From NCBI GenBank assembly GCA_951812955.1, contig OX638340.1:3520001-3584000 (forward strand): DNA of 64,000 nt. The letters are read 5' to 3'. Both the position numbers and the translations under genes were made by a program. Position 1 is the stretch's first letter, and each line of letters starts with the position of its first letter. The notes beneath the pieces are model-generated. The model was not told the DNA's origin, searched no databases, and saw nothing but the letters and a program-made list of their open reading frames with translations. Shown piece after piece: positions 2,806 through 9,082 of the stretch. The DNA comes from an uncultured Gemmatimonadota bacterium (lineage in GTDB: Bacteria; JAAXHH01).

Positions 2806-4014
2806 ATGGCTGATGATCGACCTGACAGTGCAGGATCCGACTTCGACGGCTCCGGCGGCGAACGCCTGACTTATGAAAGTTCCGGTGTGGATTACGACCG
2901 GATAGATCCGCTGAAGGTCCTCGCCCAGCGCGCGGCGCGGGACACGGGGGCCAACCTCGACGGCGCGGGCGCCCGCGAGGTGGCGGCCAGCCGTGGGGAG
3001 TCGGCGTACGTGGTGGACATCGGCGACGCCTATCTCGCCTCCATCACCGAATGCCTGGGTACCAAGGCCCTGGTGGCGGACGCGATGTGTGAGGCGTCGA
3101 GTGTATTGAGGGCGTCAGAGGAGTCGGAGGAGTCAAAGGCGTCGGAGGCGTCGCGAAGGACCTGGTACGACCACATCGCACAGGACACCATCGCCACGGC
3201 CGTCAACGACATTGTCACCGTGGGCGCCCGGCCCCTGAGCATCCACGCCTACTGGGCGGCCGGTTCGTCGGACTGGTTCGACGACGTGGAACGCATGAAC
3301 GACCTGGTCGAGGGATGGAAGGCGGCCTGCGACGTCCTGGGCGTGGCCTGGGGCGGCGGCGAGACGCCGTGCCTGACGGGCGTGGTGGAGGAAGGCGCCA
3401 TCGACCTGGCCGCGTCCTGCGTGGGCATCATCCGGCCTAAATCACGCCTCACCCTGGGCGAAGACCTCAGCGCCGGGGACGCGATCATTCTCCTGGAAAG
3501 CAGTGGCATTCACGCCAACGGCCTCACCCTCGCGCGCAAGCTGTCCGAACGGCTGCCGGAGGGCTATGCCACCCTCCTGCCCGGCGGCCGGACGTACGGC
3601 GTGGCGCTGCTCGACCCGACCGTGCTCTACCCTCCCGTTACCGAAGCGGCCTTCGCGGCCGGTATCGACCTGCGCTACATCGCCAACATCACCGGCCACG
3701 GATGGCGCAAGATCATGCGACACCCCGGCAGGTTTACCTACCGCATTACCGAAGTGCCCCCCGTTCCCGAGGTGCTGAAGTTCATGGTGGATGAGACCCA
3801 ACAGACCGCGGAAGAAGCCTATGGCAGCCTCAACATGGGCGCCGGCTTCGCCCTCTTCGTCCGCCCGGAAGACGGGGACGCGGCCGTGGCGTGCGCCGAG
3901 ACCGAAGGCATCCGCGCTTGGGTCGCCGGCGTGGTGGAAGATGGCCCCCGCCAGGTGGTCATCGAGCCGCTGGGCGTTACGCTCGCCGGGGAAAGCCTCG
4001 CCCTGCGGGACTGA
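2806..4014 (+). CDS. PurM-superfamily (AIR-synthase-related) ATP-binding protein
   Basis: ITECLGTKALVAD and AVNDIVTVGARPL...WGGGETPCLTGV match the PurM N/C-domain signatures. Internal acidic low-complexity insert SEESEESKASEAS. The last 15 nt are repeated at 18245. Confidence 0.6.
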   Translation: MADDRPDSAGSDFDGSGGERLTYESSGVDYDRIDPLKVLAQRAARDTGANLDGAGAREVAASRGESAYVVDIGDAYLASITECLGTKALVADAMCEASSVLRASEESEESKASEASRRTWYDHIAQDTIATAVNDIVTVGARPLSIHAYWAAGSSDWFDDVERMNDLVEGWKAACDVLGVAWGGGETPCLTGVVEEGAIDLAASCVGIIRPKSRLTLGEDLSAGDAIILLESSGIHANGLTLARKLSERLPEGYATLLPGGRTYGVALLDPTVLYPPVTEAAFAAGIDLRYIANITGHGWRKIMRHPGRFTYRITEVPPVPEVLKFMVDETQQTAEEAYGSLNMGAGFALFVRPEDGDAAVACAETEGIRAWVAGVVEDGPRQVVIEPLGVTLAGESLALRD

Positions 4015-4089
4015 GCCGCGGGCTGACTTCTCTGGTCGAATCCTCTATTCTCTACGATTCTATAATCCAGCGTAACTCAGTGCTTTTAA

Positions 4090-4400
4090 CCATACGGAAC
4101 CGCTGATCGACTCGGTTGTTCGGTCGAGAGGTATCGTTTGAGTCCGTTGAACGTACGATCACGTTGAAAATGGTGTCGCTCTGGATGCTTACGAGACTGT
4201 TTTCGACCTTGAACGAGTCTGGAACGAGCCGCTTTGCCCTTCGTCCGCATAGGCCTTGTCACCGTAGATCGCCTTCCCTGGACGGTCAGTTTTATTGACG
4301 CGGACTTCGCGGGGCATTGACACCTGCCTGGGTTGACCTTGTCGAAAGCCCGGATCTGCCACGAATCCCGCTTTACTACCGTCAGTAAGACTTAGTACCC
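4090..4400 (+). pseudogene. decayed IS3-family transposase (integrase-core) remnant, copy A
   Basis: About 75% nucleotide identity over about 100 bp to 8590..8690. Residual translation ...MVSLWMLTRLFSTLNESG resembles the RGNCWDNAVAESFFSTLK region of IS3 OrfB. Lower GC than the flanks. Confidence 0.45.
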
Positions 4401-4643
4401 CCTCCCCTAATATACTGTACGCGCCCTATCCGTTTGTTTACAATATAATCATATTTAATTCTTATAATTTCACATTTAAGCCACGAGTTATTGATCTTAG
4501 ATTTGATAAGTTAAGACTCCAGCGTTAGTATTATGTTGAAAAATCCAGTTTGATTCACATATTGAATTTATCAATCTCTGAAACAACTGACCCGTTCGTT
4601 TGTGAATACAGGGGCAGCATTTTCTTCCAAAGAATGTACCTCG
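4400..4643 (+). promoter_or_regulatory. AT-rich putative promoter/leader region upstream of LRR lipoprotein 1
   Basis: GC drops sharply (tttacaatataatcatatttaattcttataatttcacattt...). No ORF. Lies immediately 5' of a large gene. Confidence 0.3.
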
Positions 4644-6980
4644 ATGACTTTCGAGTTCCGACTTACGTCACGGCGTTTGGGACGCTTCCTCGTCCTGCTG
4701 CTCGCCTGCCTTGCCCTTCCTTTGCTCGTCACGTGCGGCAGGGACACTCCCACGCAGTCACGGACCGCGGTCCCGGCGCGGGTAGTGGTCACGCCTGTGG
4801 CCACGGATCTGGCATCGGCAGGACAGACTGTGCGACTCAACGCCCGGGCGCTTGACGACGCCGGCCAAGAAGTCTCGGAGGCTCCTGTTGCCTGGCGCAG
4901 CACCGACGCGTCGGTGGCGCGCGTGAGCGCGGACGGCGTGGTCACCGCCGTGGGGGAAGGCAGCGCCCTCATAACGGCCATGGCCGGCCAGAAGACGGCT
5001 CAAGCGAAGGTGACGGTGGCGGACCCGGTGCGCGCGGCGCTGCGGGCGCTGTACGAGGCGACGGGCGGGGCGAACTGGAAGAACAGCGACAACTGGCTGA
5101 GCGCCCGGCCCGTTGGCGATTGGTACGGGGTAATCGGCGAGCCATCCGGACCGAGCGGGATTTCGCAACGGAGAACCAGCGCCGGCGGACTGACGCGCCT
5201 GGACCTGTCCGGCAACGGATTGACGGGCGAGATCCCTCCCGTGCTGGGCAGCCTGGCCGGTCTTCGTTATCTGGACCTTTCCGACAACGCGCTGTCCGGC
5301 GCGATCCCTCCTGCGCTGGGCAACCTGTCGTCCCTCGAGACGCTGAAGCTGCACGATAACCGGTTGTCGGGCGAGATCCCTTCGGAACTGGGCAACCTGG
5401 AAAGTCTCCGGGAGCTGTCTCTGCACGGCAACGGGCAACTGACCGGTGCGTTGCCCCTTTCGCTCGCCAACCTGGACCGTCTGGAAACGTTATCCCTTTC
5501 GGGTACGCAGTTGTGCGCGCCGACCGATGCCGCGTTTCAGAACTGGCTGCAAGGAATCGCGAACAGGACCGGCATCTTCAATTGCGGCAACGATACGGAC
5601 GGCGACCGGAACGTGCTGCTCGCCCTGTACAACGCGACGGACGGTCCCAACTGGACGACCCGTACGAACTGGCTGAGCACCCGTCCCCTGTCGTCCTGGC
5701 ACGGGGTGGGCGTGAACGCCGCAGGGCGCGTCGACAGCCTGATCCTCGAAGACAACGCGCTGGCCGGACCGATCCCCGCCAGCCTGGGCAGTCTCGCCGG
5801 CCTCGTGGCGCTGGACGCGAGTGGCAACCAGTTGTCCGGCAGCATCCCGGAGGAGCTGGGCGATCTCTCCGGTCTGGTTACGCTTGATCTCAGCAACAAC
5901 GCGTTGACCGGACCGATCCCGCCGGCGTTGTTCAGCCTGCCCAATCTCGTTACGCTGGAGCTCTCCGGCAATCGGTTTACGGATATCCCGGATACAGACA
6001 TCCCGGATACAGGCACCCCGGTCCTGACGGATCGGGATGTGCTGGTTGCGCTCTACAACGCCACGGACGGCGAGAACTGGACGAACAACACCAACTGGCT
6101 GAGCGACAGGCCGCTAGGGGAATGGCACGGGGTTCGCGTCAATGCGGAGGGGCGCGTCGAAGGACTGGACCTTAGCGCTAACCAGCTATCGGGCCCGATC
6201 CCGACCGAACTCGCAAGCCTCACCAAGTTGACACATCTGTATCTTTACGATAACCAGCTATCGGGCCCGATCCCGGCAGAAATCGCAAGCCTCACCAATT
6301 TGACAGAGCTGGACCTTAGCGAGAACCAGCTATCTGGCCCGATCCCGTCCGAACTCGGCAGCCTCACCAAGTTGGAAGATCTGTGGCTTTTCGGTAATCA
6401 GCTATCGGGTCCCCTGCCCGGAACGTTCACCGGTCTGACAAACTTGGAAAGACTGTCCATCGAAGGAACCGGGTTGTGCGCGCCGACGGACGCGGCCTTC
6501 CAGGCGTGGTTGAGGGGAGTCGATGACAAATCTGGAGTGGTCAACTGTGCCGGCTCAAGCCCAGACCTGATCGTCGCATCGCCATCGGTAAGCGACGACA
6601 CCCTGACGACGGGGCAGTCTTTCACGCTGAGCGCGTCGGTGCGCAACCAGGGCACGGGGCGGTCAGCCTCGACGATCCTGCGCTATTACCGGTCTTCGAA
6701 TTCGACCATCTCATCGTCCGATACGCAGGTCGGCACGGACGCCGTGAGCGCACTGGCCGCATCGGGAACGAGCGCTGAATCGATCAGCCTGTCCGCGCCT
6801 TCGAGCGTCGGGACGTACTACTACGGCGCGTGCGTGGACGAGGTAAGCGGCGAGAGCGATACGGGCAACAACTGCTCTACGGGCGTGCGCGTCACGGTGA
6901 TGGTCGAGGATGACCACGGCGATACTCGGTCTGGAGCGACATCCCCTCGCGCTGAGCGGTTCGGTCTCGGGACGGATTGA
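4644..6980 (+). CDS. LRR lipoprotein 1: lipobox signal, Big_2 domain, three plant-type LRR supermodules, CARDB domain; reading frame broken near 6943
   Basis: Signal and lipobox LLVTCG. Big_2 (VVVTPVATDL...AKVTV). N-caps LYxATxGxNWxxxxNWLSxRPxxxWxGV. 24-aa LRRs LxxLxxLxLxxNxLSGxIPxxLG. C-caps GTQLCAPTDAAFQNWL. CARDB (PDLIVASPSV...GTYYYGACVDE...NNCS). Confidence 0.75.
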   Translation: MTFEFRLTSRRLGRFLVLLLACLALPLLVTCGRDTPTQSRTAVPARVVVTPVATDLASAGQTVRLNARALDDAGQEVSEAPVAWRSTDASVARVSADGVVTAVGEGSALITAMAGQKTAQAKVTVADPVRAALRALYEATGGANWKNSDNWLSARPVGDWYGVIGEPSGPSGISQRRTSAGGLTRLDLSGNGLTGEIPPVLGSLAGLRYLDLSDNALSGAIPPALGNLSSLETLKLHDNRLSGEIPSELGNLESLRELSLHGNGQLTGALPLSLANLDRLETLSLSGTQLCAPTDAAFQNWLQGIANRTGIFNCGNDTDGDRNVLLALYNATDGPNWTTRTNWLSTRPLSSWHGVGVNAAGRVDSLILEDNALAGPIPASLGSLAGLVALDASGNQLSGSIPEELGDLSGLVTLDLSNNALTGPIPPALFSLPNLVTLELSGNRFTDIPDTDIPDTGTPVLTDRDVLVALYNATDGENWTNNTNWLSDRPLGEWHGVRVNAEGRVEGLDLSANQLSGPIPTELASLTKLTHLYLYDNQLSGPIPAEIASLTNLTELDLSENQLSGPIPSELGSLTKLEDLWLFGNQLSGPLPGTFTGLTNLERLSIEGTGLCAPTDAAFQAWLRGVDDKSGVVNCAGSSPDLIVASPSVSDDTLTTGQSFTLSASVRNQGTGRSASTILRYYRSSNSTISSSDTQVGTDAVSALAASGTSAESISLSAPSSVGTYYYGACVDEVSGESDTGNNCSTGVRVTVMVEDDHGDTRSGATSPRAERFGLGTD

Positions 6981-7482
6981 TCCCGGCACTGACGTCGATT
7001 ACTTCGAGATGGAAGTCACCGAATCGGGAACATTGACGGTCAATACGACCGGCAGCCTCGACACAACGGGCGAACTCGAGGACAATTCAGGCTCCCGCTT
7101 GGCGCGTAATGACGATGGCGGCAGCGGATCTAACTTCAGAATCAGCCATTCGGTGAGTGCGGGAACGTATTACGTCAAAGTGGAAAGCTTTAGCTCGAAC
7201 ACCGGGAGCTACACGATCCACGCGAGTCTGGCGAGCGGCGGCGGTGGCGGCGGTGGTGGCGACGGTGCCTGCGTAGCCGGATTGGTCGTGAATCCCGGTG
7301 AGAGTTGTACGTACAAGGGCTATGACTTTTCCGTTAGTTCCACAGGCAGAGGGAGCATTGCCTTTTTCTCCGCGGGAACCGGTATAGATGCAAGGGGTAG
7401 CACGATCAACGGCGTGCGTTGGAACTTCCATGCCACCCGAAACAGTGGTAGTAACAGTTGGACCATCCATACTGCTGATTGA
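6946..7482 (+). CDS. out-of-frame (+1) continuation of LRR lipoprotein 1: pre-peptidase C-terminal (PPC) domain plus Gly8 linker and a small C-terminal domain
   Basis: DDHGDTRSGATS in frame 0 is followed in frame +1 by LALSGSVSGRIDPGTDVDYFEMEV...GTYYVKVESFSS, the canonical PPC motif. The shift occurs at the cccc run 6943..6946. Confidence 0.6.
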   Translation, partial: LALSGSVSGRIDPGTDVDYFEMEVTESGTLTVNTTGSLDTTGELEDNSGSRLARNDDGGSGSNFRISHSVSAGTYYVKVESFSSNTGSYTIHASLASGGGGGGGGDGACVAGLVVNPGESCTYKGYDFSVSSTGRGSIAFFSAGTGIDARGSTINGVRWNFHATRNSGSNSWTIHTAD

Positions 7483-7784
7483 ACGGTTTCACCAGGTACG
7501 CTTCATCTCAATGGTCTTCATCTTCAGATAGTGTCAACCAGATCTGCGTACGAAACACGGCTATCGAAAACCTGGCTGGCATGGAGGAATTGTCATGTTC
7601 GGTAACTGGATTTCGAGAAGCGTCAGACTTTCGGGAACGTGACCATTGTAAGTCCGGCTGAGAAGAGCTTCAGATGCAGTGGGTCTTCTTGAGGCGGTGA
7701 CCTCATTGACACGCGTTCCGTTCAGGATTGACGGTCCATCCTTCCGGACACGTGTAACCGAGCCTGCTCGGCAGGAGGTATGAA

Positions 7785-8336
7785 ATGCGTATTTTACTTA
7801 TGATGATCGTCCTGGTCGCATTGGCCTGTGGCGATGACGATATGCCGACGGCCCCAACTCCCACACCGGAACCGGATCCTGCCGAGAAGCTGATCGGCAC
7901 GTGGAAATACACGGGGAACGATTTCGATACCAAACTGGCCGCCAACGTGCGGAATTACCTGATCGGCGAGGGCCATACTGCGAGCGAGGTCGACAAGGCG
8001 GTATCTGGCGCCCTTGGTGAACTCGACTTGGCGTTAGCCCGTACCTTTAACTTTAGGTCAGACGGAACGGTGATTGTCGACAGCGAACCTCCTTACCGGT
8101 ACCAGGTGTCCGGCAATCGAATAATCATCACGACTTCGGATGGTGAGACTCTTTTCTTGGGGGGTGGTGAGACTCTTTCCGGGGAATACGCCGTTACGGA
8201 CACCGCGCTTACCCTGCATTTTCCAGTAGCCCCGCTGCTGGCGACTGTTGTACCGGAGGACGAAGAGGAAGCGGAACTGATGAGGACCATATATATGGGG
8301 ATAGAGGTCTTGACTATGTATTTCTCGAGGCAGTGA
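7785..8336 (+). CDS. hypothetical lipoprotein (lipobox LVALACG)
   Basis: Signal peptide plus Cys lipobox, Pro-rich linker, beta-rich body. No family recognised. Confidence 0.5.
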   Translation: MRILLMMIVLVALACGDDDMPTAPTPTPEPDPAEKLIGTWKYTGNDFDTKLAANVRNYLIGEGHTASEVDKAVSGALGELDLALARTFNFRSDGTVIVDSEPPYRYQVSGNRIIITTSDGETLFLGGGETLSGEYAVTDTALTLHFPVAPLLATVVPEDEEEAELMRTIYMGIEVLTMYFSRQ

Positions 8337-8531
8337 TTTCTTGTTGAACTGATCACCGTAAATCAGGCGCTTTACTTGATTTCCATGTGGACTGCGCCGC
8401 TCACCAGCATTTAGTATTTTCGCCGACCGCCCTCTGTCGGACTGCGCCTCCCGCCCGTTTTGAAACTGCGCCGCCTGACCGGGACGCATCTGTATTGAGT
8501 ATCTTCTGAGCAAGGAACGTATACGAATCTC

Positions 8532-8922
8532 TTGAGTGAAGCCAGAGTCCGCACCGGCTGCCTTATTGAAGAGTTCTGCAATCTTAAGGCACCTCTGATC
8601 AACCTGGTTGTTCGATCAAGTGGTATGATCCGAGTCCGTTCAGAGATCGATCACGGTGATAATGATGTCGTTATGGGTAATTGCCTTTGGATTCTTGCCA
8701 AGGTGTTTTCATCCTCGGTCGGGTCCGGGAACAGCTTGGCCTGCCCGGGGTTTCGCCTGATCTAGGCGCACATTCAAATAGGAGGCCATCTACCTCAACT
8801 CCTATGACACCGTGTTGGAACTGATCGGTAGGCTAAATCCCTGTTTCTCGTTCTACAGCCATGAAAGGCAGAATCCGTCGCTGGGTTATCTCGCTCCGGC
8901 CGAGGTACACTTTGAACCGTAG
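8532..8922 (+). pseudogene. decayed IS3-family transposase (OrfB integrase core, C-terminal end) remnant, copy B, with a frameshift
   Basis: Frame 1 gives ...IDHGDNDVVMGNCLWILAKVFSSS. Frame 2 gives ...YLNSYDTVLELIGRLNPCFSFYSHERQNPSLGYLAPAEVHFEP*, matching the IS3 OrfB C-terminus (...FYNxxRxHSSLGYLSPxEFE). Homologous to copy A. Confidence 0.55.
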
Positions 8923-9082
8923 TTTTACGTAGAGGATCCACCTTAAGTCTTACAACCTGTGGTCCATACTTGGTGATAAGTTTGCCATTTTAACATTCTT
9001 TAAACACAAACGTGCTACACGCGAGGAAAACAGTTCGACCTGCGGTGTAAAAACACCGAGCCGTTTGTCGTAACTGCCGATC

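Follow-up and report, generated by a model that had tools for sequence, protein, structure and literature searches.

Two stretches of DNA located upstream of LRR lipoprotein genes in an uncultured Gemmatimonadota bacterium are copies of one and the same element of ~150 nt. They lie at positions 4088-4238 and 8580-8741 of the window, by which we mean the whole stretch of 64,000 nt that was analysed. The element has fixed boundaries in the three copies known, it occurs in either orientation, it encodes nothing and it is separate from the IS3 fragment found close to one of the copies. We tentatively propose that it is a discrete, MITE-like relic that is now decaying neutrally. It is rare and in decay, and the three known copies show no sign of a function. 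In this reading, it would be a mark of the mobile-DNA history of the strain-specific island that carries the LRR genes, and not of a joint duplication of these genes.

These results correct the annotation of the region. The repeat cannot be taken as a sign that an IS-bounded cassette was duplicated to give the LRR paralogues, and the label of IS remnant should not be applied to the stretch at locus 1. The LRR and metalloprotease lipoprotein genes appear as a strain-specific island at a recurrent insertion point, with scattered small repeats and IS debris. This bears on how marine and sponge-associated Gemmatimonadota vary their eukaryote-like surface proteins.

A repeat upstream of two LRR genes

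The sequence-only reading had noted that 4096..4200 resembles 8590..8690 at about 75% identity, and this similarity withstood formal alignment. A repeat search of the window aligned 4088-4184 with 8580-8676 over 97 nt without gaps at 74% identity, and blastn gave 75% identity over 92 nt (E = 5e-12). The Smith-Waterman score of copy 1 versus copy 2 is 69, whereas 200 shuffles gave 21.8 +/- 2.1 with a maximum of 28, and the identity thus does not fall to background. In view of these values and of a third copy found elsewhere at E = 3.6e-15, the probability of a chance or low-complexity match is negligible.

When one 14-nt indel is allowed (copy 2 has 14 extra nt at 8677-8690), the similarity reaches 4238 in copy 1 and 8741 in copy 2. 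Over the whole element, which is 151-162 nt long in the window, the two copies are 71% identical in 143 ungapped columns; the match of the right 55 nt is marginal when scored alone (z = 2.1). The sequences to the left of the two copies do not align (z = 0.5), nor do the AT-rich leaders that separate the repeat from the LRR1 and LRR2 genes. Both copies are on the plus strand, copy 1 at 558 nt upstream of the start codon of LRR1 (4646) and copy 2 at 503 nt upstream of that of LRR2 (9083), which bears out the proposed placement in the same orientation ahead of two LRR gene units. Searches of the 64-kb window with blastn and nhmmer returned these two copies only.

A third copy defines the boundaries of the element

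Another genome harbours a third copy, at an unrelated locus (L127). It is located on the minus strand, with an aligned core at 9927-9786 and a full extent of about 9932-9775, and its similarity to the window copies is highly significant (nhmmer E = 3.6e-15; alignment z = 22 with copy 1 and 13.8 with copy 2). This copy is inverted and precedes by 68-78 nt the start codon (10001) of the gene for P0178, a homologue of LRR1. All three known copies are therefore found 5' of LRR lipoprotein genes.

The positions at which the similarity starts and stops coincide within a few nt in the three copies (~4088-4238, 8580-8741 and L127 9932-9775), and the flanks cannot be aligned with each other. Because the third copy has the same two boundaries in unrelated flanks, the repeat is best described as a discrete element of ~150 nt and not as a randomly truncated remnant. 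Pairwise identities are 71% between copies 1 and 2, 62% between copies 1 and 3 and 61% between copies 2 and 3. Sites common to two copies only number 30 for copies 1 and 2, as opposed to 17 for copies 1 and 3 and 15 for copies 2 and 3. By both counts of sequence similarity, copies 1 and 2 are more closely related to each other than either is to copy 3. Across the three copies, 72 of 143 columns are invariant, and the identity of the repeat between genomes (62%) is lower than that of the adjacent leader (~80%) and of the coding sequence (~82%) in the comparison of the window LRR1 locus with L127.

Searches of related DNA (972 kb, in which the surroundings of two more LRR1 homologues were covered) and of plasmid and viral collections detected no further copies. 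At the AIR-synthase-like locus where the island is inserted, nhmmer found no match at E < 1 in about 35 related genomes, among them the one represented by locus L097. Exact-pattern scans of genome, metagenome and viral collections yielded nothing or matches limited to the pattern itself.

Two additional features of L127 deserve mention. An IS110 transposase is encoded 3.7 kb from copy 3. In addition, positions 7511-7693 of the window, which look non-coding and lie between ORFs of 190 and 183 aa, are 81-91% identical to L127 9214-9308, 9562-9649 and 15050-15112. Their L127 counterpart is the start and the end of a gene for a small lipoprotein of ~117 aa (9299-9650), of which the window segment appears to be an internally deleted remnant.

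The IS3 fragment at locus 2 is distinct from the repeat

Both stretches had initially been read as remnants of the same IS, with the one at locus 1 as the more degraded. A genuine IS piece is present at locus 2, but it lies outside the repeat. It is a 5'-truncated IS3-family remnant (8765-8964, plus strand) composed of the last ~50 codons of OrfB followed by a tail of ~45 nt to the right end of the IS. Its extent was deduced from the sharp onset at 8765 of DNA homology to 12 IS3 loci and from position 8965, at which the homology of the LRR2 leader to the related locus L097 resumes (z = 7.9). The translation of 8767-8916, RTFK*EAIYLNSYDTV...FYSHERQNPSLGYLAPAEVHFEP*, matches annotated IS3-family transposases on plasmids (tblastn); it is interrupted by one in-frame stop at 8779, and the natural stop is at 8920-8922. 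It corresponds to positions 322-369 of the 369 of NCBIfam NF033516, and to positions 231-280 of the 286 of an OrfB HMM (E = 6e-13) made from 57 metagenomic sequences of that IS3 subgroup.

This fragment begins 24 nt to the right of the end of copy 2 (8741), on the same strand. It has no counterpart at locus 1, and there is no IS3 piece alongside copies 1 and 3. The best OrfB HMM score in either window copy of the repeat is below 0 bits, 8767-8916 being the sole match, and an OrfA HMM made from 57 sequences of the same subgroup gave no match near 4000-4650 or 8300-9000. The right-end terminal inverted repeat of the IS3 was not found at the repeat either, the best match to the reverse complement of 8935-8966 having at least 7 mismatches in 22, which is chance level. 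The repeat did not match any of 80 IS3 loci by nhmmer, its six frames had no match in Pfam and NCBIfam, transposase models included, and its open frames had none in 7.3 Gb of plasmid sequences by tblastn. The reading as the 'same IS remnant' is thus not supported, and locus 1, which has no part of this IS, is not a more degraded copy of it.

By eye, the plus strand of the repeat can be read as an IS3 OrfB (DNxxxE..W.T.K.E) and the minus strand as an IS5-type transposase (DKAYD ... NRVDQRF). Both readings look persuasive, and both failed every formal test.

The protein closest to the IS3 fragment, P0002 (73% identity), is encoded by a chimeric ORF of 142 aa that joins an unrelated N-terminus to the last ~80 residues of an IS3 OrfB. 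Therefore, this IS3 lineage also exists elsewhere as a 5'-truncated relic.

Coding capacity, RNA structure and termini of the element

The 25 mismatches between copies 1 and 2 are spread over the three codon positions (10/8/7), the indels are not multiples of three, and the two window copies have no stop-free reading frame in common. With no codon periodicity, no common open frame and no protein-family match, the repeat encodes nothing. An origin as a gene fragment was also discarded, since a tblastx comparison with ~1 Mb of related DNA brought up nothing but low-complexity noise.

Rfam contains no relevant match to the repeat at E <= 1, and the folding energies of single copies are ordinary on both strands (MFE z = -0.2 to -1.0). 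When the three copies are aligned, RNAalifold predicts a long imperfect hairpin in which the two ends pair with each other and 84.5% of cells are paired. Nine of the 43 pairs of this consensus hairpin show compensatory changes, compared with 4.9 +/- 1.5 after shuffling (6 of 500 shuffles reach the observed value), for a structure that was derived from the same three sequences. Comparison of the left half with the reverse-complemented right half of each copy gave z = 0.5-1.3, such that dyad symmetry is not significant. Neither terminal inverted repeats nor direct repeats indicative of target-site duplication are evident at the boundaries of the three copies, which are known to within a few nt, and no promoter-like sites were found inside the element.

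Several other candidates were set aside. There is no tRNA nearby to account for the repeat as a tRNA or att-type fragment, and an intrinsic terminator is present in copy 2 only. An invertible promoter switch was rejected, as the flanks in L127 differ from those in the window and there are no significant flanking inverted repeats.

The LRR genes and the proposed cassette duplication

The island encodes three LRR proteins on the plus strand, all with lipoprotein signal peptides (L-V-T-C-G / L-V-R-C-G). LRR1 (4646-6980, with the start as called in P0177) has Big_2 and LRR domains. LRR2 (9083-14005) has the same two kinds of domain and, at its C-terminus, an HExxH metalloprotease domain. LRR3 (14064-18176) is a paralogue of LRR2 with 47.5% amino-acid identity, and its gene is probably co-transcribed with that of LRR2.

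LRR1 and LRR2 share 36-40% amino-acid identity and differ in domain architecture. The closest homologue of LRR1 is P0178, from another genome, with 71% amino-acid and about 82% nucleotide identity. The contrast between 71% and 33-40% amino-acid identity indicates that LRR1 and LRR2 group with genes of other genomes before they group with each other. These values, together with the unalignable leaders and with collinear similarity confined to ~150 nt, contradict the proposal that the LRR paralogues arose or arrived as a 'duplicated IS-associated cassette': neutral DNA duplicated jointly with genes that are now 36-40% identical could not have stayed 71-75% identical. The mobile component of that proposal is plausible, whereas the joint duplication of LRR genes is not supported. 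What is left of the cassette idea is that the same small element stands ahead of the LRR1 and LRR2 units, inside an island built from mobile DNA.

The conserved C-terminal domain of LRR2 and LRR3 (12500-14005 and 16700-18176) contains the HExxH zinc-metalloprotease motif, as HEIGHN or HELGHN, and a homologue carries the name M66 family metalloprotease. The LRR2 gene also contains an internal repeat of 219 nt (9270-9488 and 9525-9743, 87% identical) that covers two Big_2-type Ig domains, indicating a probable recent intragenic duplication.

Origin of the element

Fixed boundaries, unrelated flanks, both orientations, the lack of coding capacity and a neutral-looking decay are the reasons why we favour, with reservations, a MITE-like mobile origin. 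Like MITEs, the element is short and non-coding and has the same ends in unrelated flanks (n = 3 copies, two in the window and one in L127). In its size range (100-160 nt), its intergenic location near gene starts, its occurrence in either orientation, its discrete boundaries in unrelated flanks and its divergence by point changes and small indels, it also resembles MITE-like or palindromic repeats such as the Correia/NEMIS repeats of Neisseria and the ERIC sequences of enterobacteria. This likeness does not rest on a sequence match. The element departs from them in lacking clear terminal inverted repeats and a target-site duplication, in that the dyad symmetry of single copies is not significant, and in that only three copies are known. 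The same features speak against the MITE-like reading: terminal inverted repeats and target-site duplications are not evident, the dyad symmetry has z = 0.5-1.3, and the three copies are all 5' of LRR genes, a placement that could equally well fit a cis-acting role or shared spacer descent.

If the element is MITE-like, it would have entered the AT-rich intergenic DNA 5' of LRR-lipoprotein genes, or been copied there. Since copies 1 and 2 are closest relatives, copy 2 may be a secondary copy of the copy-1 lineage that was placed in the LRR2 leader. The IS3 would have landed later, 24 nt to the right of copy 2, and subsequently lost its 5' 1.1 kb.

Descent from an IS could take two forms, the repeat being either the non-coding left end of the IS3 whose right end is at 8765-8964, i.e. 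an internally deleted mini-IS3, or a fragment of an IS of another, unidentified family. It would fit the genuine IS3 fragment 24 nt from copy 2 in the same orientation, as well as the nature of the region, an IS-visited, strain-variable island, and the IS110 transposase 3.7 kb from copy 3. In IS3 elements, however, orfA is reached within about 100 nt of the left end, and the 150-160 nt common to the copies contain no orfA start. None of the frames resembles OrfA or OrfB, the repeat matches the reverse-complemented right end of the IS3 no better than chance, and no IS3 piece adjoins copies 1 and 3. Furthermore, all three copies have one and the same right boundary, which independent truncations would not yield. 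The mini-IS3 version was rejected on the OrfA test, the inverted-repeat test and this shared right boundary, and the NCBIfam transposase models and the six-frame plasmid searches remained silent. We thus regard an IS remnant as unlikely. Somewhat less probable again is that whole [spacer - leader - LRR gene] units were duplicated in tandem long ago and that the repeat is what is left of this event, a patch kept similar by gene conversion. Such a duplication would account for two units in the same orientation, each following a segment (4001-4056 and 8389-8506) that looks like the 3' end of the AIR-synthase-like gene or the sequence downstream of it, and for the collinear order in L127 of an LRR1-like remnant, a small lipoprotein gene, the element and the LRR1 homologue. 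It is at odds with the 36-40% amino-acid identity and different domain architectures of LRR1 and LRR2 and with their unalignable leaders. The AIR-synthase-like motifs left of copy 2 are also less similar than the repeat and weak (z = 1.7), and a related LRR-metalloprotease unit with a homologous leader lacks the element in L097.

A functional cis element of the LRR-lipoprotein units kept by selection, be it a regulator-binding region, a structured leader or spacer RNA or a recombination site, would explain the location of every known copy 5' of an LRR lipoprotein gene, and also why the copy 1 and copy 2 loci resemble each other more in the repeat than in the leaders and coding sequences next to it. 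The consensus hairpin, with 84.5% of cells paired and nine of 43 pairs compensatory (4.9 +/- 1.5 and 6 of 500 upon shuffling), would agree with it, but the hairpin was derived from the same three sequences, and single-sequence folding is ordinary (z = -0.2 to -1.0). Neither distance nor orientation is conserved, with 558 and 503 nt for the direct copies versus 68-78 nt for the inverted one. Only 72 of 143 columns are invariant, and the repeat is less conserved between genomes (62% identity) than the adjacent leader (~80%) and coding sequence (~82%). The element has no Rfam match and no promoter-like sites, and neither the LRR genes of about 35 related genomes nor two additional LRR1 homologues have it upstream. 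Selection for a cis function is therefore doubtful, to about the same degree as an IS remnant. A more specific conjecture, which we consider quite improbable, is that of a cis-acting module of LRR-lipoprotein cassettes, which would serve either as a structured recombination or capture site at hot spots such as the 3' end of the AIR-synthase-like gene, or as an orientation-independent regulatory site. If it were correct, the element would owe its place ahead of each LRR unit to a function and not to accident.

A strain-specific LRR island at the AIR-synthase-like gene

The insertion point of the island is the 3' end of an AIR-synthase-related (PurM-like) gene (2806-4014, plus strand). A left direct repeat (3979-4056) comprises the 3' end of this gene and ~40 nt downstream, with an exact 15-nt core, CCCTGCGGGACTGAG, at 4001-4015. 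The core is found again at 18244-18258 in a right direct repeat (18219-18285), where the sequence common to island-free relatives resumes. On both sides, on the plus strand, it sits in an imperfect direct repeat of ~70 nt. A 19-nt pattern containing the core, with up to three mismatches, has two matches in the window, compared with 0.04 expected by chance.

About 35 related genomes are 81-95% identical to the window at the nucleotide level up to 4009-4055. Beyond this point, they jump to the window sequence that starts at 18244 or at the RDD gene (about 19525), and in most of them the spacer between the AIR-synthase-like and RDD genes is only ~1 kb. Because the relatives jump across it, the LRR region of ~14 kb (about 4056-18243) is a strain-specific island. 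The homologues of the AIR-synthase-like gene are from uncultured Gemmatimonadota MAGs, some of them labelled Latescibacterota, and many originate from sponges or corals. Among the LRR-metalloprotease homologues, one bears the name Candidatus Palauibacter; Palauibacterales is a marine order of Gemmatimonadota (PMC10469786).

The region is reminiscent of genomic islands integrated at the 3' end of a gene and bounded by att-like repeats, in that ~14 kb are absent from relatives, the 15-nt core is repeated and the target gene stays intact; copy 1 of the element lies 32 nt inside the left junction. It differs from att-type islands in that no integrase was seen in 4056-18243, and a role of the repeat element in the att-like site would be conjectural.

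Events of this kind were also observed in relatives. The LRR gene inserted in L085 has on either side a 130-nt stretch duplicated from the 3' end of the RDD gene (14075-14203 and 17575-17703). In L097, the 3' end of the AIR-synthase-like gene occurs a second time over 115 nt (14315-14429), and this copy is followed by a homologous leader and an LRR-metalloprotease gene. These arrangements suggest that LRR cassettes may have been captured recurrently with duplication of the end of the target gene. Target duplications of 115-130 nt would also fit single-crossover homologous integration.

Short motifs of the GGGACTGAG / GGGCTGAGCC type follow the stop codon of the AIR-synthase-like gene in L084-L123, in numbers that vary by genome. 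They form a small variable array in the stop-codon region, e.g. at 11304-11420 in L088, at 11172-11260 in L095 and at 8389-8475 in the window. The latter segment, to the left of copy 2 on the plus strand, contains the motifs GGACTGCGCCGC, GGACTGCGCCTC and AAACTGCGCCGC; a z value of 1.7 is suggestive of degenerate copies of the motif found after the AIR-synthase-like stop codon in this lineage. A second such copy inside 4291-4385 reached z = 1.1-1.8 only and is not claimed.

Finally, the native spacer before the RDD gene contains four units of a 33-nt tandem repeat inside a small ORF (19302-19466). The same type of repeat is present in L086 (11400-11560), and its copy number varies among the relatives.
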